Below, piece after piece: positions 1,765-25,384 of a DNA stretch of 25,384 nt (position 1 is its first letter; the number at the start of each line of letters is the position of its first letter). This stretch comes from a virus. Lineage: Duplodnaviria > Heunggongvirae > Uroviricota > Caudoviricetes. A program made the position numbers and the translations under genes. The notes under the pieces are model-generated. The model was not told the DNA's origin. It did not search any database and saw only the letters and a program-made list of their open reading frames with translations. The stretch lies in the IMG/VR virus record IMGVR_UViG_2718218100_000015; one strand, given 5' to 3'.

Positions 1765-4098
1765 TTATTTCGCTGCAAACTCATCGCATTTTGGCAACCA
1801 GTCAGCATTGCTTTCCTCTCTTAGGGCCAGATTAGTCTGCATTCCTTGATTGGTCCGTCGTTTCTCATACTGCAGCCCATATTCCTTGAGCATTAACGGT
1901 AGCCCCTTGCCAAACATGGTCAGACTGAGCGTATTTTTATAGCCGTTAGCCTCCATGTAGACCAGATAGGCATGGTAGAGGTAAGTTCGAGGCTGACGTG
2001 GAACAATATTAGCGTTCCCCATAAACATGCCCGTGGTGTCAGGTAGGACCTCAAGGTAGCCGCAAAAATCAAAAGCTGAATCAGCATCACGTTTGATGGT
2101 GAGCGCTTCATCGGAGTTCTGCTGTGACTGAAGCAATGTCCTGGCACTCATTGGGTCGCTGAAACGCTGCATAAGCTGGCGAACAATCACCGCTAGCTCA
2201 CTGGCAATTTTCTCTTTGAGCTGGGTATCGCGTTCCTCCGGGGCTATCTGGTCGGGGAAATGCAGGATCACCCTTCGGCGTGAAACTCCACCACTACGAT
2301 CAGTGAAGCGCATCGGATTATTGTTCACAGCCAGGATGACCGCCGGGATGTGGGTTGAATAGGCGTTCTGATATTTGGGATCAACGGATACCGCATCGCC
2401 GCCAGTGATGGCTTTTAGTCCGGCCCCGTCACCGCTCCACTTTTCCTGGTCGGGAAGTCGAATCAGTGAAAAACCTATTAACGCAGCTCGTTCTCTTGGC
2501 GACTCAAGCATTTCAATGGTTGCCGAGGTCGCGTTATCTTCACCCGCCAGCATGGTTGCTATTTCAGCAAGAATACTCTTTCCACTTCCGCCAGGGCCAG
2601 TGACCTCCAGAAACAGCTGCCAGTCATAACGGTTAGCCAGCACCATAAACAATGCAGCCAGAATAATGTCCCGTTTTTCAGGATTAAAACCTGCGGCACG
2701 ATCCAGCCAGCGCCAGAATGCCGGGGCATGGGTTTCCAGTGACTCACCGTCAACGGGCTGCGTGTAATCCACCTCGCACAGCGTACGTAACCAGTGCTTC
2801 TTATCGTGCGGGCTGAACAATCCTGTCCGGGTATCGAGCACACCGTTGCGAAATCCGATAAGTTGCCGCGCCGGATTCTGCTGTTGCGGAACGATCAGTT
2901 TGAGGGTTTCCACGAGAGACGCAATTTTCGCGGATGAAAAAGGTGCGTCGAGGCGCTGAAACAGCGCAGCGACATCACGGGCAAAATCGGCGTAATAGAT
3001 AACTTTCCAGGCCCCCGCCTCATAGCGTGAAAGGAGCTGCCCGTTCGGGTCTACTGCCAGTGAATTTTTATAGTGATCCACTACCCTCTGCGCTTTTTCG
3101 CTGACGCTCAGCGCGGTAAATTCAGCTTCGCTCATTGTGTCGAAGGGGCTGGCAACAGCTGGTTTTATTACTTCATGAATTGCATGCCGGGTGGCTTCTT
3201 CGCCGTTTTGCGTGAATGCATCGTTCCAGTCACCAAACACAGGCGGGAGCGCCATTGTGCAATTGCAGGCCCCGGTAACAGCTGCGCCCCTTGTTTGCCC
3301 CGCACCGTTGAGATCGCGGTCAGCAGCAATAATTATCTGGTGCGTTGGGTACTCACTGCAGGCAATGCTCGCCAGGGAAAGGAAATTGACGGACGAAAAG
3401 GCCACCATGACAGCATCGCCAGTCAGATAGTTGATAGTAAGTGCGGTGGCATATCCTTCCGCTATCCAGAGCCGTTTGGCTGCTTTGGCAGTACCTTCAA
3501 CCAGGTAAAAGGCATTCTTAACCTGACCGCCTTTAAGGAAGCATTTGCCCCCATTAGCGTTGATTAACTGCAGATTTACCAGCTCTCCATCTGCATACAA
3601 TGGAACGACAAGATCTCCCGCGCGAAATGCCACACCACCGACTTTATGCATAGCGGTTAATTCCCGGCAAGGCAGTGCAGGAAACCCTTTACTCGTCAGA
3701 TAGGCATTGCCAGTGGTCTGGCGGGACTTATCAAACAAACGGGCAGCCAGCACTGCTGCAGCTTTTCTCCCGTCCTCTTTTTCAGGAGAACCAGATTCAA
3801 GCATTCCCTGAGATACTGGCAGCAGGTTTCCGATAATGCCGTTTATTCTGTCTGCCGCTTCACTAATGCCTACATCCAGTACTTTACTTACAAGCGCCAG
3901 GCCATCACCTGCCCCGCACTGGTTACAGAACCACGTTCCCCGCCCTTCCTGGTCATCAAATCGAAAGCGGTCTTTCCCGGCACAGACCGGGCAGGGCTGG
4001 TGCCGATTTTTCAGTACATTTACGCCCAGCGCAGGTAAAATTCTTGACCAGTGACCCCGAGCTGCTTTCTCAGCCTGGCTAACTTTCATTCCTGACAT
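1765..4098 (-). CDS. P4 alpha-like DNA primase/helicase (777 aa)
   Basis: N-terminal zinc-finger CPVCAGKDRFRFDD and CNQCG, Walker A VTGPGGSGKS in the C-terminal helicase part; ATG at 4096-4098 preceded by AAGGAGG (rc of 4107-4113); length equals P4 alpha. Confidence 0.9.
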   Translation of the reverse strand: MSGMKVSQAEKAARGHWSRILPALGVNVLKNRHQPCPVCAGKDRFRFDDQEGRGTWFCNQCGAGDGLALVSKVLDVGISEAADRINGIIGNLLPVSQGMLESGSPEKEDGRKAAAVLAARLFDKSRQTTGNAYLTSKGFPALPCRELTAMHKVGGVAFRAGDLVVPLYADGELVNLQLINANGGKCFLKGGQVKNAFYLVEGTAKAAKRLWIAEGYATALTINYLTGDAVMVAFSSVNFLSLASIACSEYPTHQIIIAADRDLNGAGQTRGAAVTGACNCTMALPPVFGDWNDAFTQNGEEATRHAIHEVIKPAVASPFDTMSEAEFTALSVSEKAQRVVDHYKNSLAVDPNGQLLSRYEAGAWKVIYYADFARDVAALFQRLDAPFSSAKIASLVETLKLIVPQQQNPARQLIGFRNGVLDTRTGLFSPHDKKHWLRTLCEVDYTQPVDGESLETHAPAFWRWLDRAAGFNPEKRDIILAALFMVLANRYDWQLFLEVTGPGGSGKSILAEIATMLAGEDNATSATIEMLESPRERAALIGFSLIRLPDQEKWSGDGAGLKAITGGDAVSVDPKYQNAYSTHIPAVILAVNNNPMRFTDRSGGVSRRRVILHFPDQIAPEERDTQLKEKIASELAVIVRQLMQRFSDPMSARTLLQSQQNSDEALTIKRDADSAFDFCGYLEVLPDTTGMFMGNANIVPRQPRTYLYHAYLVYMEANGYKNTLSLTMFGKGLPLMLKEYGLQYEKRRTNQGMQTNLALREESNADWLPKCDEFAAK

Positions 4099-4111
4099 TG
4101 TGCGGCCCTCC

Positions 4112-4435
4112 TTAGTGCAGCGCTGGTTTGTTGAGGTGACGGGAACAAAGTTCATCCATGACCGTCATTCCGAGCAGTGAGAGAACCGGACAGGCTTTAA
4201 GCGGCCCCGACTCCATCAGATCCGAAAGCAACGCGCAGGCAATTTCCAGCCCTCTTTGCTGCCCATGCTGGCGCAGATAGAACCCTTCCAGCTCGCGGGC
4301 TATGGCATCTTCAAGTTCAGCGAGCGTCAGGCCGGAATAACGTTCCTGATGATTGCTTAGAGCCAGCCAGGCACAGGCAACGGCACGGCGATACAGAGCG
4401 GCACGAAGTGCCAGAAGAGATTCACAGCATATCAT
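4112..4435 (-). CDS. hypothetical protein (107 aa) in P4-like early operon
   Basis: ORF whose stop overlaps the primase RBS; chained by overlaps to the upstream ORFs, which suggests translational coupling. No recognisable motif. Confidence 0.45.
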
Positions 4436-4656
4436 CAGGCCACCTCCGCATTCATCAGGTCGTCATGGCAGCGTTGCACCACTCCATCCAGTTGCTCTGT
4501 CATCAGATAAATGAGGGAAACCAGTTGTTCGCATTGGGCACCTGCTGGCTTTTCATAACAGTCCTGCAGGGCTGCCATGCCAGTTACATACTCACCCACA
4601 TTGCGTAAATGTTTCAGCCTTACAACATCGTCGTAGGAAATCTCAAACTGGTTCAT
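4435..4656 (-). CDS. hypothetical protein (73 aa)
   Basis: ORF overlapping the downstream ORF by 1 nt and the upstream ORF by 4 nt; no recognisable motif. Confidence 0.4.
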
Positions 4657-5210
4657 AGCGTCACCTCCCCGGCAGGCAGCCGTGCAGAAAGGGAGAGTAC
4701 ATAATCTCGGACTAGCAAACGGCGCGCGGAACGCTCATCGCAGGAGACAGTGCGAAGCATACAGATGCGGGGGTGAGTGTCAGCACGGCGGATTGCGGCA
4801 AACACAAAGACATATTGCGGGTGTGACGGGGTGAGGATTGTAGCCATGATGGCAGCCTCCAATAAGTAGCGGTTATTGCTACCACCGGAAACGCCAATTT
4901 CACTGGTGGCAGCCCGAACGGGGTTGGCGTAACCGGCCTTATTGGAAACCGGCCAGCCCGAAGGCTGCCCCGCCCGGACTACCATTATCTCGATAGAACC
5001 ATGGTGTAAGCATAAACACCACAGCCCTGAAAATGGTTGTGCCTGAGCTACGACGTAAAAAAAGACGCAAGGGGCGTCAATTGTCGCCAATAAGTTATAC
5101 GGAACGCCAATTCCGGCTGCCGATTTTGCGACAGCGGAAAAACTATACCTGGAAATGACGACAGTAAGCAAGCCAGAATAAAGGTATTTAATGTATGCAG
5201 GTATCATCAT
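4653..5210 (-). CDS. doubtful ORF (185 aa); may be partly non-coding P4-type immunity/leader region
   Basis: Start overlaps the alpA stop (ATGA), but composition is atypical (Cys/Trp-rich, low complexity) and the 5' part (about 4860-5200) looks like structured or intergenic sequence. Confidence 0.25.
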
Positions 5211-5467
5211 GCATCACATCCCCGCCCACGGGCGCTGATGCGGTCCGCCATCCATGCGCTGACCTCAGACTGTGCCCAGGCGACATTTTTACCGCCAAGC
5301 GGGATCTGCTTCGGAAACGCATCGCGGCTGATCAGGTCGTAAACGGTCGAACGGGACAACCCGCATAAGTGCATCACCTCAGGCAGGCGTAAAAATCGCT
5401 CATGATGGTTCGATACAGGAAATAATGGCGCAGCAGGAGCTGGCGCAGACACAGAAATATTACGCAT
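5207..5467 (-). CDS. AlpA/Vis-family prophage transcriptional regulator (86 aa)
   Basis: [32 protein letters not shown]...[14 protein letters not shown] matches the AlpA-type HTH pattern; sits at the head of the leftward operon ending in primase. Confidence 0.8.
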
Positions 5468-6302
5468 TTATCTACCCTCTTTAATTTCCACAACAGTCCG
5501 GATGAATTTATCCGGGTTCAGGTAGTTCCTTATTATGTGTATATAAACCACCTGCGCACGCATTTTTTATTTAGCGTCACATATTGATTTTATGGAATTT
5601 AAAGCCCGATTAAACCATATAAAATGACATAATAAATACCATGCCTGCGGACTATAAATACAGGAGCATTAATAGGAACTACCATTCACCCAGGGTTTAC
5701 TATCCTATGGGTCATTGCACCTGATAGTGCTAACCCCACCGCCAATACAGCAAGGCAGTACAACTTCTACACGAGGCCTTGCATTGCAGGCCCCAATTTC
5801 CGGGCATATTTTTGAATCGCATCCAACTTATAAACATTGGGCCTGCATAAAAACCTTGATATTAAATAACATCACCTTAAATCGTAAAATATATCCGAAT
5901 GAATCCATAAAGAACCGGACAGATCTAGTTTTATAAAAATCAGTATGAAATGCAACACCATGGCCAGAGGCGAAAATGTTATTCCCCGGCAAAAACATGC
6001 AGTCTATTTATGTGCCTGTTGAATACTCCTGAATAAGGGTGAATAGTGGTGAGGAGCAAAAAACAAATAGCTACGAGGAATAAAAAAACCACCCATTATG
6101 AAAAAATACCATAAATAATTTTATTCCCATGTGAACAGTTATGAACAGTCGATGAATACTGCCATGCCAACCCTTCACCTTATAACCTTCTGTATTACCT
6201 ATTTTTTTTACCTAAGTGAATAGTTAAGGTAAGTCTGAAACAGCCTTAGTTAAACGAGGCCTTTTCTGGCTAGCCAAAAGAGGTCCGGGGCGGTTCAGTC
6301 TT

Positions 6303-6320
6303 TGTCTTGTCGCTCGCACA
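6303..6320 (+). promoter_or_regulatory. TGT-N12-ACA dyad, candidate Ogr/Delta-dependent late promoter element upstream of sid
   Basis: tgt cttgtcgctcgc aca at 6303-6320, centred about 80 nt upstream of the sid ATG at 6391; P2/P4 late promoters carry this dyad near -55. Confidence 0.45.
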
Positions 6321-6390
6321 ATGGCGTTCAATGGCAGCTTTGTATGCATCACAGCACAATTGACACCACGACAAACCACTAGGTGCTGAC

Positions 6391-7143
6391 ATGACAATCC
6401 CAGAACAGAACAATAACCCGATCGTTGAAATTTCTATCCCTGTTTCGACGCAACAGGCGCTTGAGAAAGTGAATGCCACCAAATCTGCATGGCTTGAAGC
6501 ACGTCGTCAGCAAAAAGCGGCAGCGGATAATATTGCGACAATCCGCCAGCGCCGCGCTGAAATGGAAGCCACGACGAACGCCCTGAATGAGGAGTGGCGC
6601 ACGCTATTTCGTGAAAGTCAGGGCGTAGTCTCAAAGGAAATGAAAAAACTGCGCACGGAAATTGCGCTGGGACGAGAAACGCTTGAGGATTTTGATGAGC
6701 TGCTGGCGGCTCAGGAAAGCGAAAATGCACTTTTGCCGCAGGAGGCTGCGGAATTAGCCGGAAAGTATATCCACGCGCACGACACCCTTGTGGGTATTCG
6801 CGCAAAACAAATCTGGGAAGATTTTATGCAGTCGCATGGAAAAGCACTAATCCAGACACTAAGCCTGCTCAAATCAACAATGGGCAGGGAAGCCAGCGCA
6901 GTTGTCGGTGTGGTGCATTCAGTTAATGACCCGGACACACTGCTGAAAGATTTTATTCATAAACATATCACCAGACCGGCTCTGACTAACGATGCGATGC
7001 CCGAACAGGACCCCGTGTTTAAACTGGCGGGAGTTGCCCCGGATTATGCGGCCCGTCTGGATTTCAGTAATAAACTCTCTCCAGCAGCTATGCATAAAAT
7101 GAAGGTTCGTCAGGAACGTGCTGAGAAGGAGAAAGCAGTATGA
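6391..7143 (+). CDS. sid: Sid-like capsid size determination (external scaffold) protein (250 aa)
   Basis: Charged/helical 250-aa protein first in an operon followed by Psu-like and Ogr/Delta genes; size and context match P4 Sid. Assignment is by context, not motif. Confidence 0.55.
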   Translation: MTIPEQNNNPIVEISIPVSTQQALEKVNATKSAWLEARRQQKAAADNIATIRQRRAEMEATTNALNEEWRTLFRESQGVVSKEMKKLRTEIALGRETLEDFDELLAAQESENALLPQEAAELAGKYIHAHDTLVGIRAKQIWEDFMQSHGKALIQTLSLLKSTMGREASAVVGVVHSVNDPDTLLKDFIHKHITRPALTNDAMPEQDPVFKLAGVAPDYAARLDFSNKLSPAAMHKMKVRQERAEKEKAV

Positions 7144-7691
7144 TGGCCCGAGTCACTCCAGACCAAGCGCTTATCAGTTTTAGAAATGCCCGTATTCTGT
7201 GGGCTGGACATAGTGAGAGCCGAAAAGCCGTTGAACAACAGATAGAATCACTCCTCACTGCCATGGAAAAACCAGCAGATTATGCTCGACAGCTCGAATT
7301 ACAGCGGGAACATCTGGATGTGCTGAAATGGCAAATTAACTGTGCTGCGCGCGAATGCATTTACTCGCAGCATCAACTGATGGAGGCCTGCACAGAAGAC
7401 GCTCTCAGCAATTTTATGCAGGCGAATGGAGCAGCCCTGACATCTGCACTGGCTCCGTTCCTGAAGGGGCGCGGAGGGGTTGACGTTGCGTCCCGTATAT
7501 TACGCAATGCTCTGGTTCGCCAGCTGGCAATAACACCGCCTGAAATTGCCGGGGATTATCGTATGATTCTGGATGAATCCGGTGTGATGCCTGACCCCAT
7601 GATGGTTCGTGATTGCCAGAGCTCTTACACCCCTGCACAACAACTGCGCTTTCAGCAACGTCTGGATTACATTAACGGCATGCAGGAGTAA
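7140..7691 (+). CDS. psu: Psu-like polarity suppression / capsid decoration protein (183 aa)
   Basis: ATGA overlap with sid; recalled similarity to P4 Psu (KWQINCAAREC, QANGAALTSALAP, YTPAQQ) and size close to 190 aa. Confidence 0.65.
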   Translation: MMARVTPDQALISFRNARILWAGHSESRKAVEQQIESLLTAMEKPADYARQLELQREHLDVLKWQINCAARECIYSQHQLMEACTEDALSNFMQANGAALTSALAPFLKGRGGVDVASRILRNALVRQLAITPPEIAGDYRMILDESGVMPDPMMVRDCQSSYTPAQQLRFQQRLDYINGMQE

Positions 7692-7696
7692 TATTA

Positions 7697-7969
7697 ATGG
7701 CACTTAAATGTCCCGAATGCGGTACGACGGCACACGCCAGAACCTCCGCCTATGAAGCACCATCGGTTAAACGCTCATGGTATCAGTGCCAGAATCTTGA
7801 ATGTTCCTACACATTTACCGCACTGGAAAGTGTGGATACGATAATCATGAAGCCCCGGCGCAATGAACAGGAATCAGAGAAAGCACAAATGCCGGAAAAA
7901 CAACAGCAAACTCTCAATCGCTATGGCTCCGCGTCAAAGCTGTCAAGCCGTCAGCAAATTCCTGTCTGA
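7697..7969 (+). CDS. Ogr/Delta-family zinc-finger late transcription activator (90 aa)
   Basis: CPECGTTAHARTS...YQCQNLECSYTF is the Ogr/Delta C4 zinc-finger signature; GGAG RBS at 7685-7688. Confidence 0.85.
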   Translation: MALKCPECGTTAHARTSAYEAPSVKRSWYQCQNLECSYTFTALESVDTIIMKPRRNEQESEKAQMPEKQQQTLNRYGSASKLSSRQQIPV

Positions 7970-7990
7970 TTAGCAAAAAAAGCCCACGTA

Positions 7991-8017
7991 ATCCCGGTCC
8001 AGTACTGGGATTTTTTA
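7991..8017 (+). terminator. intrinsic terminator after the late operon
   Basis: Hairpin atcccggt-ccagt-actgggat (8-bp stem with one GU pair) followed by TTTTTT at 8011-8016, 22 nt after the delta stop. Confidence 0.55.
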
Positions 8018-8378
8018 CGCCTTTTCCCTGGCTGGCCTGAGAGCGCATGAGTGCATGTCTATAGCGCATGAAAACGCATGATTCTCATGCACCATTTTTG
8101 ACGCGAAAGCCCTTGTGTGGTGGCTTCTGAGACGATTTGCGGAATGCATGAAAACCAGTCTGTTAAGCGAAGCGAGCAGGCGTGGGGGGCTGCGCGCGCT
8201 AAGGGGTTAGATTATAAAATATCAAACGCCGGTGAGATCCATTATTGTGGAACCACCCGAAGGAAGTGTAGAGGCGAAAGTACCCAAAATAATTTTGCAA
8301 ATTATTTAGAAATGAACTGAGCGCTCGAAACGAAATATAATTTCGAGCACCCCAATTAGCAGTTATATTTTTAATGTA

Positions 8379-8945
8379 TTAAACAGGATAAAAACCAGAG
8401 CTTCCATTCTTATTTAAGTTATGGATTTTATTTGCATCATTAATTTTTATTTGGAACGTCGGACCTTTATTCTCAAGAATTACAATCTGGAAATTATAGT
8501 CCCTTTTGATTAATGCGTGATAAAATGAATCACTGAGACTGACGCTATTAACATCCGATAGAGAACCCCCTCTATCTTTATCAAAGTGCGTCACTAATGG
8601 ACTATCAAGCACAACAAATCCAATGAATGGATTCCCTTTTCTTGATAAAAATTCCGCAAAGCAAATGGTAAATATAGCATGCATTACTGCACGGGTACCT
8701 TTACCAAACATTCCTCGGCGTTTCCCATTGATATTAAAGTCATATGTATCTTCGTCAAATCGCACTTTGTTATCTTTAGAATTTTCAAAATTTATATCAT
8801 TCAAAAAGTCTTGCATCGCTATTTCTATATCATACAAATCAGCTACTGTTAAGGAGTCAAAGTCCTCGGCGGAGTATTTAAGTTCGTCAACATCATCTTC
8901 TTTATCTTGTAATGAAGATAGAATGCTATGTTTTGTGTGATCCAT
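8379..8945 (-). CDS. C-terminal ATPase part of a split SMC/ABC-type ATPase (signature-like FGKGTR, Walker-B-like FVVLDSP), 188 aa
   Basis: ATG at 8943-8945 overlaps the upstream stop (TAATG); FGKGTRAVMHAIF...FIGFVVLDSPLVTHFD resembles ABC signature plus Walker B/D-loop; last gene of the AT-rich cargo operon. Confidence 0.5.
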   Translation of the reverse strand: MDHTKHSILSSLQDKEDDVDELKYSAEDFDSLTVADLYDIEIAMQDFLNDINFENSKDNKVRFDEDTYDFNINGKRRGMFGKGTRAVMHAIFTICFAEFLSRKGNPFIGFVVLDSPLVTHFDKDRGGSLSDVNSVSLSDSFYHALIKRDYNFQIVILENKGPTFQIKINDANKIHNLNKNGSSGFYPV

Positions 8946-9535
8946 TAAAAGATTGTCTTTATATTCATAAAGTGATTCAAGAGATGAATGTATTGTTTTA
9001 TATTTTTATCTTCTAACGTCTTAAAATCACTTTTTTCTGATTGATAAATTTCATTAACATCATTTTTTCTTAACATAATTAATTCATGTTCGCGAACATT
9101 AGATCCGATTGATTCAATTAATCCTTTCAGCTGGCTTTTGATTTTCAATTTTTCTGCATTACACGACAAAAAACAATCATCATATGATATTTCATTTTCT
9201 TTTTTTTGCGGTGTATTACAGAACTCACAATAAATATCTGCAAAATTATTTAAATAGAAATTCGCCTGTGATACAACATCTATTCTTTGTAGATCTATAA
9301 AGTATTGGTCTTTAAGAAGACTAAATCTTTCAATGAGTAATGATAAGTATTTTTCCCTGTCACTGATTGAATATAATTCATCACTTAACTCTTTTAATAA
9401 TTGCTTCTTATCATCAAGTGCATCAACAATACCTTTCAATATATCTTTCGATGATTCAATATCTTGCTCTACTTTCTCAAGTTCTCTTGAAACAATGACT
9501 TGATCATATTCAGGATAAATTAATTGCGCTTTCAA
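8945..9535 (-). CDS. coiled-coil middle segment of the same ATPase (196 aa); no ATG, follows an in-frame TAA
   Basis: In the same frame as ORF 9566-10225, separated only by TAA at 9566-9568 and 10 sense codons; heptad-like charged sequence with CEFC...CFLSC Cys pairs. The ORF-track 'start' is TTG. Confidence 0.45.
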   Translation of the reverse strand: MKAQLIYPEYDQVIVSRELEKVEQDIESSKDILKGIVDALDDKKQLLKELSDELYSISDREKYLSLLIERFSLLKDQYFIDLQRIDVVSQANFYLNNFADIYCEFCNTPQKKENEISYDDCFLSCNAEKLKIKSQLKGLIESIGSNVREHELIMLRKNDVNEIYQSEKSDFKTLEDKNIKQYIHLLNHFMNIKTIF

Positions 9536-9565
9536 TTCCTCATAAATATTTGCAATTTGATTTTT

Positions 9566-10198
9566 TTAAAAATATCTTGCTTTTTTATTTGGTTTTTCTG
9601 CTAAGGAGTTAGTATCATCTCTCTGAGTTAAAAGGAATTTAAATTCAGACTTTCTTTTTGTCTCCTCGCTAGGAATATCAGAAAGAATTAACGACTTCTC
9701 AGTTAACACTCTTAATTCATCAATATAAAAAAATTCAAAAACATTATTAAGATTAAATTTATGAAGAGTATTACTTAAGTTTGTTCTTACTTTAGCCTCT
9801 TTGAAATTCAACCTACCATAAAAGTATGATGAAAAACTCTTTTTAGACGAAGCACTTTTGGAAAAAACCATCAACAGATTAGCTTCACTAACATTTTCAA
9901 TGCTCGAATCATATAATCTGTAATGGGCGCTATCCTGAAGAGACCTCTCAATTGTCATTACCCTACCTTGAAAATTAAATTCCAGATAGGCTAAATCATA
10001 ACCTTGAGCATGATCGATATCTTTATTTTTTAGTTTTTCACTCCCTAATAAATATCGAATCAAATAATATATGTATGTTTTTCCAGAGTCAGAACCACCA
10101 TATAAAATAGTCAATTTAGAACCAAATTCAATTATAGCATCTAATTTATTGAATCCGGTTACCTTTATTTTTCTGAACGTAAAAAAATTGTCATTCAT
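9566..10198 (-). CDS. N-terminal Walker-A part of SMC/ABC-type ATPase (LmuB-like), terminated by in-frame TAA
   Basis: ATG at 10196-10198 (MNDNFFTFRKIKVTGF...), Walker A ILYGGSDSGKTY at residues 32-41; ends at TAA 9566-9568 with the reading frame continuing downstream. Confidence 0.55.
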   Translation of the reverse strand: MNDNFFTFRKIKVTGFNKLDAIIEFGSKLTILYGGSDSGKTYIYYLIRYLLGSEKLKNKDIDHAQGYDLAYLEFNFQGRVMTIERSLQDSAHYRLYDSSIENVSEANLLMVFSKSASSKKSFSSYFYGRLNFKEAKVRTNLSNTLHKFNLNNVFEFFYIDELRVLTEKSLILSDIPSEETKRKSEFKFLLTQRDDTNSLAEKPNKKARYF

Positions 10199-10649
10199 AA
10201 TTAAATTCCATATCATATTTGCCAATTTTATTTTTTATAATTGATTGCAACTGCTCATCAGGAATATCACTATATAACTTAACCACCAAATTTATATTAT
10301 GCTCCATCTGCGCAACATATTCATTATGTAGAGAATTTGTAAATGCATATGTTTTTTCAGAAGCTTTATATACAAAACCACGATGTGTATAAATTTTTGA
10401 GGCTAGTTCATAGCCTTGCAACAAAGCCAATGATTCTAAAACAATCTCTCGTTTTAGGGCTAACTGAGCATCTCTACGGGGTATTGGAGGATGAAGACTA
10501 ATCTCTTCAGGTAAAAAATCCTTAAGATTTACTAAAATAAAATCAAAACAAATAAGCCGTTCAAGGCTTAATGAAGAAGGATAAATAGCGACGAGCACTT
10601 TCGCCATTCGACATGCCACTTCTAAACTTGAATTATAAATTCTAACCAT
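10191..10649 (-). CDS. small hypothetical protein (152 aa) of the cargo operon (LmuC-like position)
   Basis: ATG at 10647-10649 overlaps the stop of the upstream ORF (TAATG); stop overlaps the start of the ATPase gene; no recognisable motif. Confidence 0.45.
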   Translation of the reverse strand: MVRIYNSSLEVACRMAKVLVAIYPSSLSLERLICFDFILVNLKDFLPEEISLHPPIPRRDAQLALKREIVLESLALLQGYELASKIYTHRGFVYKASEKTYAFTNSLHNEYVAQMEHNINLVVKLYSDIPDEQLQSIIKNKIGKYDMEFNYE

Positions 10650-11266
10650 TATCTCACCGTCCAAATTACTTCACCATCATTAACCAAATGATGGCATATT
10701 CCTTTTTTATCATTTGCTTCACATATTTTTGATAGTACTGAATGTGCAATTGGTGTCAGAACAGCCTGCTTCAAGACTGCATTACACCTAATAAATGCAT
10801 AATTATGGTCTTCATAAAAGACGGGTTCAATTGAAGATGAAATGTAACATTTCAATGCTTTGAATACATCATCTTTAAATACTTCGCGGACAAAAACCTC
10901 AAGCGAAGATGCAAAATAAAAATCATTTCTACTATTATTAAAGTGTCGTCTGTATGGATCATCAAGCTCTAAGAAAGAACTATAAGTTTTATTTCCATGC
11001 TCTGAATAGGCTTGAAGCAGTGCATTAACATATACAGACTCTTTTTTTGAATTGTATGTTGGAATTTCATTTGGAGGGATTCTCACGACATACAGCTCGT
11101 TAAAGTACTTAAAATAAAGGTGTGTATTTGCAATATCATTTAAAATCAATGATAAGGGTAGAGAGTAAAAAATACTAAAATCAAAATCCTCAATATATTT
11201 TTTTATTTCATCATCTAATGGAATATCAATCTTTTTAGTTATTTTTTTGAAATTGCTGAATCCCAT
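10649..11266 (-). CDS. C-terminal portion (205 aa) of putative effector; probably the same gene as 11239-11655 after a frameshift
   Basis: Overlaps the upstream ORF by 28 nt around an A7 run (T7 at 11242-11248 on the plus strand); the two frames differ by 1. Confidence 0.45.
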   Translation of the reverse strand: MGFSNFKKITKKIDIPLDDEIKKYIEDFDFSIFYSLPLSLILNDIANTHLYFKYFNELYVVRIPPNEIPTYNSKKESVYVNALLQAYSEHGNKTYSSFLELDDPYRRHFNNSRNDFYFASSLEVFVREVFKDDVFKALKCYISSSIEPVFYEDHNYAFIRCNAVLKQAVLTPIAHSVLSKICEANDKKGICHHLVNDGEVIWTVR

Positions 11267-11655
11267 GAATCAAGGACTGCTTTTTTAAGCTCGTTTTTAT
11301 TTTTCAATAAATTAGAAAATGTAGTAGATAAATCATAGGGTGCCACAAAAAAGTACTTCTGAGGGATGGGATAATCACCATTCAGAGTAAAATAGATAAG
11401 TTTTCCAAACTCAACTACAACATCAGAGAACCCTAAACTTTTTTTGTACAGTTTGCATTGATAATTATCCCAAGAATAACCTTCTACGTTAGGATCCGAT
11501 TTATATCCAACAACGTCTCTACCTTTATCTCCAGCTCCTCCCAAACGTTCGCTCCACGGGTAATCATCTGATTTACAGACAATAAGCCAATCATGGACAA
11601 ATACCTCCCATTGTTCATCATCCCATGTCAATATTTCCGAAAGTGGTTGAGACAC
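11239..11655 (-). CDS. N-terminal portion (138 aa) of putative effector with Mrr/Cap4-like PD-(D/E)xK nuclease signature
   Basis: GGAGDKGRDVVGY...NYQCKLYKK fits the D-x-G-x-D ... Q-x-K pattern of Mrr-type restriction-endonuclease folds; first gene after the integrase in the cargo slot. Confidence 0.5.
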   Translation of the reverse strand: MSQPLSEILTWDDEQWEVFVHDWLIVCKSDDYPWSERLGGAGDKGRDVVGYKSDPNVEGYSWDNYQCKLYKKSLGFSDVVVEFGKLIYFTLNGDYPIPQKYFFVAPYDLSTTFSNLLKNKNELKKAVLDSWDSAISKK

Positions 11656-11658
11656 AAA

Positions 11659-12840
11659 TTAACTCCTTTTTAGTCTTTCAAATATCAAATTACTGTACCA
11701 GTCCATCATAGACTTCCTTCCACTAAAATATTGAGCATGGTTATAAGTCCCCCTAATAGAATTTTTATCTACATGAGCCAACTGGATTTCAATCCAAGCA
11801 CTCTCAAAACCTTGCTCATGCAGGATTGTAGAAAGGGTATGACGAAAACCATGTCCAGTGACTTTTCCTCCATACCCAATACGCTTAATGGCTTGATTTA
11901 TACTCGCTTCGCTCATTGGCCTATTCGGATCGTTCCGCCCTGGAAAAACATAACGATAGTTCCCTGTCATGATCTTGAGTTCATTGAGTAAATCTACCGC
12001 TTGAGATGATAAGGGCACAAGATGTGGCCTACGCATTTTCATCCTTTCAGCAGGAATTTCCCAAATAGCGTTATCCAGATCAAATTCTTGCCATAATGCC
12101 GCGCGTAATTCGATGGTTCTCACACCCGTAATCATCAGTAATTTCGTGGCTATCTGGACAAGCTTACTCCCGGAGTAACCCTCTAAGGCACGTAGAAAAT
12201 CAGGTATCTCATCAGCTTTTAGGAATGGGAAATGATTGGATTGGTGTACTTCGAGAGCGCTGGAGAGCTCAGCCGCAGGATTGTACTCCGCCCTACCCGT
12301 TGCAATTGCGTAGCGAAACACTTCGGAGCAACGCTGCCGCACTTTGCGCATTTTCTCCAACGCACCACGTTTCTCAATTTTACGCAGAACGTTCAGCAGC
12401 TCTAGCGGTTTAATCTCTCCCACAGGCCTTGTTCCGACATAAGGAAAAATGTCGTTCTTAAACGCTTCCATGATGTCTGATGCATATCCCGCCGACCATT
12501 TAGCAGATTTAAGTTGATGCCACTCTCTGGCTATCTTTTCGAAGGCGTTCTCTGACTCTGTTTGCATAGCTAGCTTTTGCTCTTTTCGAACCTCACTAGG
12601 GTTCTTTCCTTCTGCCACAAGTTTTCGAGCTTCATCACGACGGGAACGAGCATCGGCAAGGGTGATCGTTGGGTAAACACCAAGCGAGATCATTTTGGGT
12701 TTGCCGGCATAGCGATAGCGGAACCGCCAACTCTTGCTTCCATTAGGTTCTATAAGTAATGACAACCCTAGCCCATCTCCAAATGTATAGGCTTTAGCTT
12801 CAGGCTTAGCGCGGCGAATCTGCATATCGTTTAAAGGCAT
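11659..12840 (-). CDS. int: P4-type tyrosine integrase (393 aa)
   Basis: ATG at 12838-12840 (MPLNDMQIRRAKPEAKAYTFGDG...); catalytic region HGFRHTLSTILHEQG ... IRGTYNH; lies 160 bp downstream of a tRNA-Thr 3' fragment in the same orientation. Confidence 0.9.
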   Translation of the reverse strand: MPLNDMQIRRAKPEAKAYTFGDGLGLSLLIEPNGSKSWRFRYRYAGKPKMISLGVYPTITLADARSRRDEARKLVAEGKNPSEVRKEQKLAMQTESENAFEKIAREWHQLKSAKWSAGYASDIMEAFKNDIFPYVGTRPVGEIKPLELLNVLRKIEKRGALEKMRKVRQRCSEVFRYAIATGRAEYNPAAELSSALEVHQSNHFPFLKADEIPDFLRALEGYSGSKLVQIATKLLMITGVRTIELRAALWQEFDLDNAIWEIPAERMKMRRPHLVPLSSQAVDLLNELKIMTGNYRYVFPGRNDPNRPMSEASINQAIKRIGYGGKVTGHGFRHTLSTILHEQGFESAWIEIQLAHVDKNSIRGTYNHAQYFSGRKSMMDWYSNLIFERLKRS

Positions 12841-13002
12841 GTGTATAGGAATCCAGACCGAACAGGAACATATACACAATCCTATACACATTCAGTACCG
12901 GATTCTACTGGATGGTTACGGACTACTATGGACTTAAAAGAATAAAAAATGTTATAAATCAGAGATTTTATGGACTAATACGGACGTTTGAGGAAGTTGA
13001 GA

Positions 13003-19250: not shown

Positions 19251-20169
19251 AAATCCACCCCGTAAATCCAGTCAGTGTTTGTCAGGTCGAGTTTTGGTTT
19301 GCTGGCTGTCACGCCTGCCTGTTGCTTGTTACGGTTGATTTCGAGCTGGGTCCACTTGTCGCGGAGTTTGGCCGGACTCAGCACGTTACCGGACCAGAAG
19401 TTGTCCTGGCAGGCCCAGCGGAAAAGCACACACATATCGCGGTGGTTACGTCCGTCACGTTCACGCATCAGGCGGATATCGTTAGCCCACCCAGCAAAAT
19501 TCGGTTTTCTGGCTGATGGCGCGATGGTCTTCACCATGTCAAACATCCACTCTGCGGCGGTCAGGTCTTCTGCTGTTCCCCACTTGCTGCCGCTCTGAAT
19601 TGCAGCATCCGGTTTAACCACAGAAAGATCGTTTTCTGGCTGGTCAGAGGATTCGCCAGAATTCTCGGACGAATAATCTTTTCTTTTTTCTTTTGTAATA
19701 GTGTCTTTTGTGTCCCCCTGTTTTGAGGGATAGCAATCCCCCAATTTGAGGGATAGCAATCCCCCAATTTGAGGGATGTTTTATCCCTCGTTTTAGGGGA
19801 TTTTCCCTCGTTTTGAGGGATACACCATTCTGAGATGTTTTTATTTGGTCCAAACATGCCGCCTTGCTGCTTGATAATATTCATTCTGACGAGTTCTAAC
19901 TTGGCTTCATTGCACCGTTTGACAGGTAACTTTGTAATCTCGCTAAGTTGAGAATCGGTGATTCTGTCCATTGGTTTATTCCACCCATAGGTTTTACGCA
20001 GAATGGCAAGCAGCACTTTAAACTGTCGCTTGGTCAGATCTGCGCCCGAATAAGCCTCAAGCAGCATATTTGATAGTCTGGCGTAACCATCATCGAGATC
20101 TGCCACATTACGCTCCTGTCCGGCAAAGTTACCTCTGCCGAAGTTGAGTATTTTTGCTGTATTTGTCAT
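19247..20169 (-). pseudogene. O: lambda-type replication initiator O, split by a frameshift inside the ori iterons
   Basis: N-terminal ORF MTNTAKILNFGRGNFAGQERNVADLDDGYARL... and C-terminal ORF ...NFWSGNVLSPAKLRDKWTQLEINRNKQQAGVTASKPKLDLTNTDWIYGVDL match lambda O; frames differ across 19742-19787. Confidence 0.85.
19721..19830. repeat. ori-lambda iterons (O-binding sites) with an extra tandem 23-bp copy
   Basis: Five iteron-like units on the minus strand where lambda has four; 19742-19764 and 19765-19787 are identical 23-mers (agcaatcccccaatttgagggat); AT-rich tract follows at about 19670-19720. Confidence 0.8.
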
Positions 20170-20179
20170 AATGACTCCT

Positions 20180-20256
20180 GTTGATAGATCCAGTAATGAC
20201 CTCAGAACTCCATCTGGATTTGTTCAGAACGCTCGGTTGCCGCCGGGCGTTTTTTA
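20180..20256 (+). ncRNA. oop: oop antisense RNA (about 77 nt)
   Basis: gttgatagatccagtaatgacc...gctcggttgccgccgggcgtttttt matches the recalled lambda oop RNA, ending in a GC hairpin plus T6; antisense to the cII 3' end. Confidence 0.7.
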
Positions 20257-20495
20257 TTGGTGAGAATCGCAGCAACTTGTCGCGCCAATCGAGCCATGTC
20301 GTCGTCAACGCCCCCCCATTCAAGAACAGCAAGCAGCATTGAGAACTTTGGAATCCAGTCTCTCTTCCACCTGCTGATCTGCGACTTATCAACTCCCACA
20401 GCTTCCGCTGTCTTCTCAGTTCCAAGCATTGCGATTTTGTTAAGCAACGCACTCTCGATTCGTAGAGCCTCGTTGCGTTTGTTTGCACGAACCAT
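20202..20495 (-). CDS. cII: lambda-type CII transcriptional activator (97 aa)
   Basis: MVRANKRNEALRIESALLNKIAMLGTEKTAEAVGVDKSQISRWKRDWIPKFSMLLAVLEWG...; ATG at 20493-20495. Confidence 0.9.
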   Translation of the reverse strand: MVRANKRNEALRIESALLNKIAMLGTEKTAEAVGVDKSQISRWKRDWIPKFSMLLAVLEWGGVDDDMARLARQVAAILTNKKRPAATERSEQIQMEF

Positions 20496-20574
20496 ATGTA
20501 AGTATTTCCTTAGATAACAATTGATTGAATGTATGCAAATAAATGCATACACCATAGGTGTGGTTTAATTGGAT

Positions 20575-20589
20575 GCCCTTTTTCAGGGC
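20575..20589 (-). promoter_or_regulatory. nutR boxB hairpin
   Basis: gccctttttcagggc (rc GCCCTGAAAAAGGGC) between cro and cII. Confidence 0.6.
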
Positions 20590-20613
20590 TGGAATGTGTA
20601 AGAGCGGGGTTAT

Positions 20614-20823
<210 letters not shown>

Positions 20824-20840
20824 TTAGTACATGCAACCAT

Positions 20841-20904
20841 TATCACCGCCAGAGGTAAAGTAGTCAACACGCGCGGTGTTAGATATTTATCCCTTGCGGT
20901 GATA
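20841..20904. promoter_or_regulatory. OR1-OR2-OR3 operators with divergent PR/PRM promoters
   Basis: 17-bp sites tatcaccgccagaggta (20841-20857), caacacgcgcggtgtta (20865-20881), tatcccttgcggtgata (20888-20904) between cro and cI. Confidence 0.85.
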
Positions 20905-20911
20905 GATTTAA

Positions 20912-21628
<717 letters not shown>

Positions 21629-21755
21629 TAGGAAGTAAGTTTTATGTTGACGGCACAGTCAACTTGGCATAGATTAATTAAACCAAGCCCAGCCCCGTTC
21701 GCAGACAATTGTTAATATCTGCATAACGGCTCTGGGCTATTTTTTTGGGACTCTT

Positions 21756-22612
21756 ATGAAGAAAGCAGCAATTTTAATTGATGCGGGTTTTTTCATGCAG
21801 CGTGTTCATGCTACGCATCGTAAACACTTCGCCGAGCATGAACTGACTGTGCAATGCATAATGAAAGTAATATGGTCAATGGTTCTTTCCCATCTTAATG
21901 GAAAACGTCAATCACAAGAACGTAGGGAACCGCTTGAGCTTTATAGAATTTACTTCTATGACTGTCCACCACTCGACATTCAAACACGCCTTCCACTTCC
22001 TGAGCCTGGCAATAAGACGCCTGGTCGCAAGAATTTCAAACTCGAAAAATCATATATTCTGAGAACGGAGCTGCATGAAGAGTTAAGAAAAACTCGAAAA
22101 ACAGCCTTAAGATTAGGGAATCTTGTTGATAATAAGCGATGGCAACTAACTACATTCTCCCTTGATGCTCTGATGAAAGGAACGAAAAAATGGGATGAAC
22201 TGACAAATGATGTTTTTACTATGACATCAAACAAAAACAAGTTGATATCAAGCTAGGGATGGATATCACGACTTTAGCTTATGAAAAACTTGTTGATGTA
22301 ATTGTCCTTGTTGCTGGGGACTCAGACTTTGTGCCTGCCGCCAAACACGCCAGAATTAAAGGTATTGATTTTATTCTTGATCCACTAAGACAGAATGTTA
22401 CCCCATCACTGTCAGAGCACATTGATGGAGTTCAGTCATACAGCTTGATATCAGGACTTGCCGATGCTTTACATGTTGAGCCAGACCCGGCACCTGACTG
22501 GTGGGAAGATCGAAAAAAAGGCAAGCCTAGAGGAAAAAACAATAGCGGTAAACGCAGGTATGGAAACACTCAAGCTGAGTCTGCAAAGAAACATCAAAGA
22601 AATAAACGATAA
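21756..22612 (+). pseudogene. NYN/LabA-like (PIN-fold) domain protein in the position of lambda rexAB; split into 166-aa and 117-aa ORFs by a frameshift near a T5 run
   Basis: ORF1 begins MKKAAILIDAGFF; the second frame reads ...KQVDIKLGMDITTLAYEKLVDVIVLVAGDSDFVPAAKHARIKGIDFIL; the frames overlap across 22211-22256 with T5 at 22213-22217. Confidence 0.55.
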
Positions 22613-22733
22613 TCCCATCAACCCGGCCACCGAGCCGGGTTTTCTTTGCCTCTCGATCGCCCCACCTAAAAACACATAATGAACCGCCCCGGAAATCCTG
22701 GAGACTAAACTCCCTGAGAAAGAGGTAAACAGG

Positions 22734-23060
22734 ATGACTAAAAATACTCGTTTTTCCCCCGAAGTCCGTCAGCGGGCGATTCGTATGGTTCTGGAAAGTC
22801 AGGATGAATATGACTCACAGTGGGCGGCAATTTGTTCCATTGCCCCAAAGATTGGCTGTACGCCGGAGACTCTGCGTGTCTGGGTTCGCCAGCATGAGCG
22901 GGATACCGGGGGCGGTGATGGTGGGCTCACCAGCGCTGAACGTCAGCGTCTGAAAGAGCTGGAACGTGAAAATCGTGAACTGCGCCGCAGTAACGATATC
23001 CTTCGCCAGGCTTCCGCTTATTTTGCGAAGGCGGAGTTCGACCGCCTCTGGAAAAAATGA
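22734..23060 (+). CDS. IS629 transposase OrfA (108 aa)
   Basis: [60 protein letters not shown]... with HTH and leucine-zipper-like C-terminus. Confidence 0.85.
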
Positions 23061-23947
23061 TGCCACTGCTGGATAAGCTGCGTGAGCAGTACGGGGTCGG
23101 ACCGGTATGCAGCGAACTGCATATTGCCCCGTCAACGTATTACCATTGTCAGCAACAGCGACATCATCCGGATAAACGCAGTGCCCGTGCGCAGCACGAC
23201 GACTGGCTGAAGAGAGAGATACAGCGCGTATACGATGAAAATCATCAGGTGTACGGTGTGCGTAAAGTCTGGCGTCAGTTGTTACGGGAAGGAATCAGGG
23301 TGGCCAGATGTACAGTGGCACGTCTCATGGCGGTTATGGGACTTGCCGGTGTTCTCCGGGGTAAAAAGGTCCGTACGACCATCAGCCGGAAAGCCGTTGC
23401 CGCAGGCGACCGCGTAAACCGTCAGTTCGTGGCAGAACGACCTGACCAGCTGTGGGTGGCTGATTTTACTTACGTCAGCACATGGCAGGGCTTCGTCTAT
23501 GTGGCGTTTATCATTGATGTGTTTGCCGGATACATCGTGGGGTGGCGGGTCTCATCGTCTATGGAAACGACATTCGTGCTGGATGCGCTGGAGCAGGCGT
23601 TGTGGGCCCGTCGTCCGTCTGGCACCATCCATCACAGCGATAAAGGCTCTCAGTATGTGTCACTGGCCTATACGGAGCGACTAAAAGAAGCCGGATTACT
23701 GGCATCAACAGGGAGTACAGGCGACTCGTATGACAACGCGATGGCTGAGAGCATCAATGGTCTTTACAAAGCGGAGGTAATACACCGTAAGAGCTGGAAA
23801 AACCGTGCAGAAGTGGAACTGGCCACACTAACGTGGGTGGACTGGTATAACAATCGACGATTGCTGGGAAGGCTGGGCCATACTCCTCCGGCAGAAGCAG
23901 AAAAAGCTTATTATGCTTCCATCGGAAACGATGATCTGGCAGCCTGA
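23057..23947 (+). CDS. IS629 transposase OrfB (DDE integrase-like catalytic domain), expressed as OrfAB by -1 frameshift
   Basis: ...[31 protein letters not shown]...[11 protein letters not shown]...[19 protein letters not shown]... shows the D, D, E catalytic spacing; overlaps orfA in the -1 frame. Confidence 0.85.
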
Positions 23948-24115
23948 GTTCACAGATAAAACACTCTCCAGGAAACCCGGGGCGGTTCATAACCAATTGT
24001 ATTTATTTTAAAATTAATAGGTGCAACTCACTAAACAACGCAATTCTGATCTCTCGATCACCTCCCAAGCCACACAACCCTGCAAAAAATAAATCTATAT
24101 AAAAAACATACAGAT

Positions 24116-24178
24116 AACCATCTGCGGTGATAAATTATCTCTGGCGGTGTTGACACAAATACCACTAGCGGTGATACT
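24116..24178 (+). promoter_or_regulatory. OL3-OL2-OL1 operators and pL promoter
   Basis: aaccatctgcggtgata, tatctctggcggtgttg, taccactagcggtgata; -35 ttgaca at 24150-24155 and -10 gatact at 24173-24178. Confidence 0.8.
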
Positions 24179-24217
24179 AAGCACATCAGCAGGACGCACT
24201 AACCACCATGAAGGTGA

Positions 24218-24248
24218 TGCTCTTAAAAATTAAGCCCTGAAGAAGGGC
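24218..24248 (+). promoter_or_regulatory. nutL (boxA tgctcttaa, boxB gccctgaagaagggc)
   Basis: boxA-like 24218-24226 and boxB hairpin 24234-24248 downstream of pL. Confidence 0.7.
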
Positions 24249-24405
24249 AGCATTCAAAGCAGAAGGCTTTGGTGTGTGTGATACGAAACGAAGCATTGGC
24301 CGGAAGTGCGAATCCGGATTAGCAGCCAATGTGCCATTGCGGGGTGTTTTCGTTCAGGACTACGACTCCCACACACAACCAAAGCTAACTAACAGGAGAA
24401 TCCAG

Positions 24406-24465
24406 ATGGATGCACAAACACGCCGCCGCGAACGTCGCGCAGAGAAACAGGCTCAATGGAAAGCA
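24406..24465 (+). pseudogene. N: lambda-type antiterminator N, first 20 codons only
   Basis: [20 protein letters not shown] then the frame reads into unrelated sequence and stops at 24519. Confidence 0.8.
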
Positions 24466-25384
24466 GATCGGATTCTGGCTTCAACATTTCGCAGGAATGC
24501 AACTAAGAGACATTACTGAATCAAAAATTTATTCAGCAATGCAGAAAATGACGAACCGGCGTCATGAGGAAAACTGGAAACTCAGGGCAGAAGCATGCAG
24601 AAAAAAAGGGAAACCTGTTCCAGAATACACGCCAAAACCAGCGTCCGTTGCAACGAAGGCTACGCATCTTTCATTTATAAAGGCCCTGCTAAGAGCCGCA
24701 GAGCGTGAATGGAAAATGCTCGATAAGGCACCAATTATTAAAGTGCCTCAACCAAAGAATAAACGGATCCGCTGGCTGGAGCCCCATGAAGCACAAAGGC
24801 TGATTGATGAATGTCCGGAGCCATTAAAGTCTGTTGTTGAATTTGCACTGGCAACAGGCTTAAGACGCTCGAACATCATCAACCTTGAATGGCAACAAAT
24901 AGATATGCAGCGCCGGGTGGCATGGATAAACCCGGAAGAGAGTAAATCAAACCGCGCAATTGGCGTTGCGCTGAATGATACTGCATGTCGCGTATTGAAA
25001 AAACAAATCGGTAATCATCACCGTTGGGTATTTGTGTACAAGGAAAGCTGTACCAAACCAGACGGAACGAAAGCGCCAACAGTAAGGAAGATGCGGTATG
25101 ACGCAAACACAGCCTGGAAAGCGGCGCTGAGACGGGCTGGTATTGATGATTTCAGATTTCACGACTTGAGACACACCTGGGCAAGTTGGCTGGTTCAAGC
25201 CGGAGTCCCGTTGTCAGTGTTACAGGAAATGGGAGGCTGGGAGTCTATCGAAATGGTTCGTCGATATGCTCACCTTGCACCTAATCACCTTACCGAACAC
25301 GCACGGCAAATAGACTCGATCCTGAACCCATCGGTCCCAAATTTGTCCCAGTCAAAAAATAAGGAAGGTACTAATGATGTGTAA
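24466..25384 (+). pseudogene. int: 5'-truncated lambdoid tyrosine integrase (arm-binding N-terminus missing)
   Basis: From [22 protein letters not shown]... to the end; catalytic motifs RxxR...[11 protein letters not shown]...VRRYAHL present; the ORF-track start at 24410 is an alternate frame of N'. Confidence 0.8.

Follow-up and report, generated by a model that had tools for sequence, protein, structure and literature searches.

In phage lambda, the exclusion genes rexA and rexB are co-transcribed with the repressor gene cI. In ToxIN and its relatives, which are type III toxin-antitoxin systems, a labile RNA is lost in infection and an endoribonuclease toxin is freed. At lambda PR'-tR', a promoter-proximal terminator makes expression depend on antitermination by Q, and the PIN/NYN-like RNase Regnase-1 is autoregulated through stem-loops in its own mRNA. 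The interval between cI and N is a known mosaic hotspot that houses the abortive-infection genes rexAB and bstA (PMC8585504), in line with the description of this slot, in an earlier note on the DNA studied here, as a home of superinfection-exclusion genes.

The locus described here lies in a 25,384-nucleotide stretch of DNA (IMG/VR record IMGVR_UViG_2718218100_000015, Caudoviricetes; hereafter the window), which is 99.9% identical here to E. coli O157:H7-type chromosomes and holds a decayed lambdoid prophage beside thrW and proA. The slot downstream of cI in this defective O157-type prophage is occupied, in the place of the lambda rexAB exclusion genes, by a cassette made up of a predicted promoter, a structured leader ending in a terminator structure, an NYN RNase gene and a shared downstream terminator (Table 1). 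Window positions 19332 to 21632 align with lambda 39500 to 37223 at 97% identity, and the alignment breaks 4 nt past the cI stop codon, as the earlier note had claimed in placing the divergence from lambda immediately after this codon. The similarity comes back at window positions 22620 to 22679, which correspond to lambda 35826 to 35771, namely the final rexB base with the terminator that follows. Since the lambda alignment ends at 21632 and restarts at the post-rexB terminator, the cassette is an exact substitute for rexA-rexB (lambda 37222 to 35827). Both borders of the slot thus match lambda and the NYN gene is co-oriented with cI, 127 nt separating the cI stop codon from the first NYN ORF; the placement of the gene in the rexAB slot was correct. 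Within the cassette no DNA similarity to lambda, and so none to rexA or rexB, was found, and a Pfam search with the repaired protein (see below) returned NYN alone, with neither RexA nor RexB. Intact prophages and phage 2B8 have the same cassette, at 98 to 99.5% identity, in their cI-N interval. In 2B8 it follows a cI with another DNA-binding domain and the same C-terminal domain, and the cassette therefore accompanies at least two immunity types.

Table 1. Features of the cassette and its immediate surroundings, in window coordinates
Feature	Position	Strand	Details
cI repressor, lambda immunity type	20915-21628	+	Intact, 237 aa; 97% nucleotide identity to lambda up to 21632; annotated as LexA family protein; outside the cassette
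Whole NYN cassette	21633-22619	+	Delimited by break and restart of the lambda alignment
Predicted sigma-70-like promoter	21647-21675	+	TTGACG, 17 nt, TAGATT; consensus scan; start predicted at about 21681-21683
Leader RNA hairpin, variant D	21686-21738	+	P1 21686-21692/21732-21738; P2 21695-21699/21725-21729; P3 21701-21705/21718-21722; loop 21706-21717
U7 tract	21740-21746	+	Directly after hairpin and A; ends 9 nt ahead of the start codon
Weak Shine-Dalgarno sequence, GGGA	21747-21750	+	Between U7 and the ATG at 21756
NYN gene, N-terminal part	21756-22256	+	166-aa ORF: in frame for residues 1-152, out of frame for 14 codons up to its stop
Inactivating 1-bp deletion	22212-22213	+	A lost between these bases; base-by-base comparison with L002
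NYN gene, C-terminal part	22218-22612	+	+1 frame; YYDIKQKQVDIKLGMD...GDSDF..., PxWW motif, basic tail
Intrinsic terminator closing the cassette	22620-22648	+	Terminator scan; 85% identity to lambda 35826-35771, homologous to the post-rexB terminator

Around the cassette, the prophage retains lambda-type cI, cro and cII, all intact, together with oR and a frameshifted replication gene O (20202 to 21628), and O157-type strains may still express lambda immunity from this dead prophage. An IS3 element of the IS1203/IS629 type (~1.3 kb, about 22680 to 23987) lies between the post-NYN terminator and oL/pL. Similarity to lambda is found again after IS1203, at 23988 to 24466, from oL/pL/nutL to the first codons of N. 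Of the N gene, only the initial ~20 codons are left, joined to an integrase gene that lacks its 5' end (24274 to 24519), everything from N to int being deleted. Upstream of the lambdoid remnant lies a P4-like satellite prophage (1765 to 12891) with a primase-helicase, an Icd-like gene, psu (polarity suppression), ogr/delta and an integrase. Its delta-integrase block (about 8379 to 11655) encodes an AAA ATPase, "ABC-three component system" proteins and hypothetical proteins; this position in P4-like elements is a reported site of defence cargo.

The gene had been read in the earlier note as one with NYN/LabA hallmarks, and the motifs quoted there (AILIDAGFF, KQVDIKLGMDI and VIVLVAGDSDFVP) are all present in the window translation. 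The second listed ORF (22259 to 22612, 117 aa) begins two bases past the stop codon of the first, and addition of one base at the junction yields a 285-aa protein. This repaired protein matches the Pfam NYN family PF01936 with an E-value of 5.9e-9 and 37 bits, well above the cut-off of 24.2, which bears out the NYN assignment. The second ORF alone also exceeds the cut-off (E 3e-6, 28.2 bits), the first ORF alone has no match in Pfam, and a profile search of PDB sequences returned no match. In an AlphaFold model, the protein shares a three-layer alpha/beta fold with solved NYN domains, the nearest being those of MARF1 and VPA0982, and a single NYN fold is predicted to cover both halves. Six aspartates are invariant in 51 homologues: D9 and D69 lie in the first ORF, which is colinear with intact 285-aa proteins, and D164, D170, D189 and D191 lie in the C-terminal part. 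These acidic residues probably correspond to the catalytic residues of MARF1, and the 285-aa protein is predicted to be a metal-dependent NYN RNase of the MARF1/LabA type.

Comparison with intact alleles defined the lesion in the window copy. The window ORF and the intact allele of L002 are distinguished by one substitution (A32V) and by a base that L002 alone has: the L002 sequence is GATGATTTTTAC and that of the window GATGTTTTTAC (GATG-TTTTTAC, the gap marking the absent A). The frameshift at a T5 run proposed in the earlier note is thus real as a frameshift and mistaken as to the homopolymer: the run (22213 to 22217) exists and has the same length as in intact alleles, and the deleted base is an A beside it. 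Five complete genomes, four from New Zealand/Australia and one O157:H7 (F8492), equal the window here without any indel, and a deletion common to five complete genomes is therefore not a read error. Slippage in the T run and a sequencing artefact are accordingly ruled out by the unchanged T5, the absent A and the shared allele, as is a programmed frameshift by intact alleles that consist of one uninterrupted ORF. A full-length copy is found in 73 of 5426 complete E. coli genomes and is intact in ~68 besides the five. All non-O157 copies inspected have the intact length of 858 nt, compared to 857 nt in the window, and in ~200 genomes, mostly O157:H7, only the first 348 to 355 nt remain. The intact protein is also encoded by 48 Stx2a-converting phages (including Stx2a phages of O121) and by EC.P3, 2B8, ev099 and E212; it occurs on at least 1000 contigs, and its 90% cluster includes close variants from Klebsiella, Salmonella and Enterobacter. 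What the window holds is thus a lineage-specific pseudogene in a decayed prophage, and the 1-bp deletion is predicted to take away the catalytic C-terminal half in frame and to leave the cassette inoperative here.

Current annotation gives a different picture of the gene. RefSeq annotates intact alleles (L002, 6157 to 7014, NZ_OZ547122; other E. coli) as a 354-nt "partial PIN/hypothetical" pseudogene followed by a 146-aa NYN protein that begins at an internal start of the intact ORF. Because the 354-nt feature matches the length of the remnant in the ~200 genomes of mostly O157:H7, we infer that this split spread from the truncated O157 form. WP_349441426.1, a 146-aa predicted defence gene, is a candidate C-terminal fragment of the NYN gene. 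The presence of two RefSeq features even on intact alleles might be taken as a sign of two separate genes, or of programmed frameshifting from one ORF into the next. Such a reading is hardly credible, as intact alleles carry an uninterrupted 285-aa ORF that is one inserted base and one substitution away from the window, as the single NYN fold in the model spans both halves, and as the "partial" feature has the length of the O157:H7 remnant. The two ORFs are one gene, as had been claimed, and the RefSeq entries for it (a 146-aa "NYN" protein next to a "partial PIN" pseudogene) conceal it from surveys.

The region between cI and the NYN gene contains the signals that set this cassette apart from a simple passenger of cI. 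The earlier note had described the gene as a PRM-distal passenger of cI; its position in the slot stands, and its dependence on PRM does not, given a predicted promoter of its own, constitutive in appearance, and a leader hairpin with U tract. The hairpin, a 17-pair stem followed by an A and U7, appears to fit the form of an intrinsic terminator, with a stable G+C-rich stem and a U tract, and it should terminate transcripts arriving from cI. A simple terminator scanner passed over it, as its loop and bulges are beyond the limits of the scanner. A variant-D covariance model built without the window gave 81.2 bits (E 2.6e-20) for this element and no other strong match in 25 kb. Rfam 15 gave no match in the window at E <=1 and none at the gathering score in 18 loci, with a chance-level match only in L064. 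The -35 box lies within a palindrome, GTTGAC-N6-GTCAAC (21646 to 21663). A related element, TTGAC-N6/7-GTCAA, covers the -35 box in several gamma-proteobacterial copies (L014, L019, L011, L021, L022) and is missing from some Pseudomonas copies and from other phyla. The palindrome could be an operator for a dimeric factor or a chance product of two TTGAC boxes.

The leader RNA is the main new result of this analysis. No earlier description of it was found, and full-text literature searches returned no paper in which an RNA motif or type III toxin-antitoxins are connected with NYN genes; it is a compact, strongly covarying RNA motif without an Rfam entry. The layout of promoter, hairpin, U tract and NYN gene was seen in every homologue first examined, from Gram-negative bacteria to Streptococcus, and in most of 80 loci from Proteobacteria, Acidobacteriota, Bacteroidota, Elusimicrobia, Bacillota, Spirochaetes and Verrucomicrobia, which were fetched via the NYN protein from one-genome-per-species contigs. 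The U tract follows the motif in nearly all homologues. A promoter-like site with its -10 box ending 7 to 13 nt ahead of the motif was found in 28 of 53 loci, compared to 2/53 and 4/53 control windows, and from this fixed distance the hairpin would start within a few nucleotides of the 5' end of the transcript. The copy on Campylobacter pTet has no recognisable leader motif.

Several variants of the leader can be told apart. Variant A, the commonest, reads GCCCYUGG-CAGUAC-GC-stem-loop-GC-CGAAC-CCNRGGGC-UUUU, with GUA, the loop AU and parts of GCCGA invariant. Variant D, the window type, is found in Enterobacterales, Pseudomonas, Acinetobacter and Pasteurella; Bacteroidota have a variant of their own behind a TAnnTTTG-type promoter box, and Proteus and relatives have a further one. 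The variant-A model did not detect the window variant D, and the variant-D model picks up variant A weakly, in the right place (L036, E 0.048; L085, E 0.42). With cross-model detection absent or weak, the case for a single origin of the variants is made by their common position and shape and by partial similarity in sequence. In variant A, the strand AGUA (GUA invariant) faces CGA(A/G/C/U)C. The internal loop, AGUA on its 5' side versus GA(A/N) on its 3' side (alignment A2 columns 13-17 and 47-51; L082 2925-2930 and 2959-2963), resembles, at the level of sequence, the signature of the sarcin-ricin/loop E (bulged-G) module, to which proteins commonly bind. The window variant D has CC/CU and C/AU loops in place of this signature.

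Covariation within both variants points to a conserved RNA structure. In a structure-blind MAFFT alignment of 21 variant-A sequences, 82% of the cells are paired and 11 of 16 pairs show compensatory changes, with a covariation score of 0.365 compared to 0.181 for shuffled alignments (0/500) and at most 0.20 for slid partners. The corresponding alignment of 15 variant-D sequences has 96% of its cells paired and compensatory changes in 13 of 17 pairs, its score being 0.446 against 0.233 shuffled (0/500) and at most 0.14 slid. As RNAalifold folded the raw MAFFT alignment poorly and out of register, the structure was set by hand and checked by these shuffled and slid controls. Counts on a larger variant-A alignment agree. 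A variant-A covariance model found 40 matches at E <1e-6 in 613 kb, all on the sense strand directly upstream of an NYN ORF. In paired cells G.U outnumbers A.C by 10:0 (variant D), 17:10 and 41:21 in three alignments, which fits selection on a sense-strand RNA. A DNA palindrome (an operator or att site) is an unlikely source of the covariation, considering the one-sided U tract, the asymmetric conserved loops and the excess of G.U over A.C. The structure of the leader RNA is very probably functional, and it is probable that the leader terminates or attenuates transcription, as predicted from its form.

The association of leader and gene was assessed by a motif-first scan of IMG/VR in which the protein was ignored. 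A first loose pattern scan of viral contigs had given 11 real matches out of 80, the rest being chance, and a stricter pattern was used instead. For variant D, there were 61 matches. A full NYN ORF follows in 44 and a partial one in 10, mostly contig-end cuts together with two O157-type truncations; six have no NYN ORF, including an AU5Stx1-like phage with the 3' end of the gene only, and one has no room for it. At least 90% of variant-D copies are NYN-linked, and several exceptions are visible remnants of NYN deletion. For variant A, among ~20 true motifs with room downstream, 11 precede an intact NYN gene and at least one an NYN remnant (L225). At one locus (L127, 9216 to 10181), a variant-A leader is followed by a second promoter and a 216-aa RelA_SpoT-domain gene, downstream of an XRE repressor. 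At another (L229, 3152 to 3530), a gene for a 101-aa RNA polymerase alpha-CTD-like protein begins 21 nt past the motif and is followed by an AlpA regulator, and one more variant-A motif leads a small ORF of no known function. The leader is mainly, not exclusively, an NYN leader, and it may be a portable module for several types of cargo.

The NYN family is large and mobile. It comprises more than 7000 clusters and is filed as PHROG 5783 of "unknown function"; the gene is always solitary, without a protein partner. It lies downstream of a cI-like repressor, in the same orientation, in E. coli and Brenneria. In the E. albertii type (found also in 27 E. coli genomes) and in Edwardsiella, it is antisense between the Q antiterminator and holin genes, in the stx slot. 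It is found beside the integrase gene at the prophage end in Pseudomonas syringae and Burkholderia phage phiE202. Streptococcus phage Javan85 has it between the repressor and integrase genes and Moraxella phage Mcat4 behind the terminase gene, and in Proteus it is convergent with glmS. Directly 3' of the Mcat4 gene (L003, 4783 to 4970), Rfam models match the Hfq-binding RNA isrK (61.9 bits) and C4 antisense RNA (71.3 bits), and the Mcat4 cassette adjoins a P1/P7-type RNA-based immunity region. The family also occurs on 169 plasmids (136 Campylobacter, 14 Xanthomonas, 8 Aeromonas), 129 of which are predicted to be conjugative. Around the 80 loci, a jackhmmer census of integrase and repressor genes was too insensitive (5/80); Pfam revealed integrases that it had missed in L042 and L074. 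The distribution is that of an accessory cargo ("moron") gene.

From the analogy of layout with type III toxin-antitoxin loci, we suggest that the cassette is an RNA-gated RNase that serves exclusion or abortive infection for the lysogen, with a probability of roughly 0.45. Most transcripts would stop at the U tract of the leader, giving a short RNA in excess over the nuclease mRNA. By stopping transcription derived from cI, the leader would also insulate the NYN gene from PRM and PRE, unlike rexAB. A potentially toxic RNase might in this way be held low or inhibited, in a ToxIN-like manner, until an infecting phage upsets host transcription or RNA turnover and the RNase is released or induced; once freed, it would cleave RNA and abort the infection, to the benefit of the lysogen. 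The chance that the selected role of the cassette is anti-phage falls, in our estimate, slightly below even. It is doubtful that the leader binds the NYN protein directly. Rather unlikely, too, is a two-part system found across phyla, in which the leader, as a ~60-nt hairpin RNA, would silence a dedicated NYN RNase by direct binding or would be recognised by it as a signal. The leader is a single hairpin and the fold of the nuclease is not ToxN-like, both of which count against RNA gating, and the copies that directly precede other genes (L229) argue against a strictly NYN-specific RNA partner.

Evidence from defence screens bears on the same question. Literature searches found no experiments on this NYN cassette family, and PADLOC-DB 2.0 gave weak matches only, to HEC-09 (E 2e-4) and "NYN" (E 1.4e-3), both over ~45 residues of the NYN core. 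HEC-09, an NYN candidate in Hma defence systems, showed no defence when tested (bioRxiv 10.1101/2024.01.29.577857). An E. coli "NYND" candidate (215 aa, WP_001399740.1), which may or may not belong to the present family, gave no protection in a published screen. The DefensePredictor paper lists a DS-3, "PIN split between N and C terminus", which was considered as a possible match and rejected, its sequence being that of an unrelated PIN_8 protein.

Other roles can be drawn from the same evidence. The cassette might be an addiction or stabilisation module, in which an unstable leader RNA neutralises a stable RNase, loss of the prophage or plasmid kills, and any anti-phage effect is incidental. 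The order of promoter, RNA-terminator and nuclease as in type III toxin-antitoxin loci, the preponderance of conjugative plasmids and of Campylobacter records among them, and the solitary state of the gene all suit this explanation; it is nevertheless unlikely, since many copies occupy prophage positions typical of cargo expressed in lysogeny and the motif at times leads other genes. The latter observation, with true motifs upstream of RelA_SpoT, alpha-CTD-like and other genes, agrees with a leader that is a general cis-acting attenuator or insulator without a specific tie to NYN, or one overridden only by an antitermination factor, the nuclease having a separate role. A hairpin and U tract placed right after the predicted start, with no space for an alternative antiterminator fold, would suit such an attenuator, as would the palindrome that covers the -35 box of several copies from gamma-proteobacteria, a putative binding site for a factor. 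We assign this explanation too a low probability: neither AGUA...GAA nor the AU of the loop varies among 21 sequences, a cross-phylum loop conservation that ordinary terminators do not have, and the great majority of variant-D copies are NYN-linked, several of the exceptions being deletion remnants.

The RNase might also serve the phage's own programme, by processing lytic transcripts or degrading them in favour of lysogeny, or by tuning host mRNAs as a form of lysogenic conversion. The gene and the C-terminal half of cI stay together in two immunity types, and NYN/PIN-like RNases of the Regnase-1 type are generally known to regulate specific mRNAs via stem-loops. This is very unlikely, however, as homologues exist outside prophages (downstream of Proteus glmS and on plasmids) and in unrelated phage architectures, and as the gene is dispensable, being truncated or deleted in ~200 O157:H7 genomes and having rexAB in its place in lambda.

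Within the window the finding is modest, because the decaying prophage carries the gene as a pseudogene; the parent cassette is widespread and intact elsewhere. If the cassette works as proposed, a widespread unnamed family with members in the Stx2a phages of E. coli O121 would acquire a function and a mechanism open to test, and the logic of RNA-controlled toxins would reach beyond the ToxN family. If hairpin and NYN protein do form a pair, they would represent a new class of RNA-protein toxin-antitoxin or abortive-infection system on prophages, integrative elements and conjugative plasmids, Stx2a phages included.

Compared to known NYN RNases (MARF1, LabA/VPA0982, YacP/Rae1; PF01936), the cassette protein has ~100 extra residues, which form two insertions at about 70-97 and 121-160, as well as a conserved C-terminal segment with PxWW and a basic tail that varies, and its gene is carried on mobile elements with a dedicated leader RNA. 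HEC-09 is likewise an NYN-domain protein put forward as a defence nuclease from genomic context; the match to it is weak and lies within the NYN core only (residues 155-200), and HEC-09 has an N-terminal HTH-like domain. Lambda PR'-tR' (6S RNA) likewise joins a promoter to a near-immediate terminator, so that a short RNA is made and the downstream genes need read-through. This likeness is an analogy only: no Q-binding element or pause signal was identified at the cassette leader, and the leader motif is conserved in phyla from which Q-type factors are not known.

Type III toxin-antitoxin loci (ToxIN, CptIN, TenpIN, AbiQ-antiQ) have the same order of promoter, structured RNA, terminator and endoribonuclease gene, and they are likewise solitary and found on mobile elements. 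Their RNA consists of tandem repeats followed by a terminator, whereas the cassette has a single hairpin of ~55-60 nt that is itself the predicted terminator; tandem direct repeats are absent from the leader, with one covariance-model match per locus. The nuclease has a ToxN/AbiQ-like fold in those systems and an NYN/PIN-like fold in the cassette. Compared to lambda rexA-rexB, the cassette has the identical slot and orientation, with the cI stop as its left border and a homologous terminator as its right border, and both are cargo dispensable for phage growth. There is no kinship in sequence or fold between the two: rexAB encodes a sensor and a membrane protein, and the cassette encodes what is predicted to be one soluble nuclease. 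Unlike rexAB, the cassette has its own predicted promoter and a terminator-type leader.
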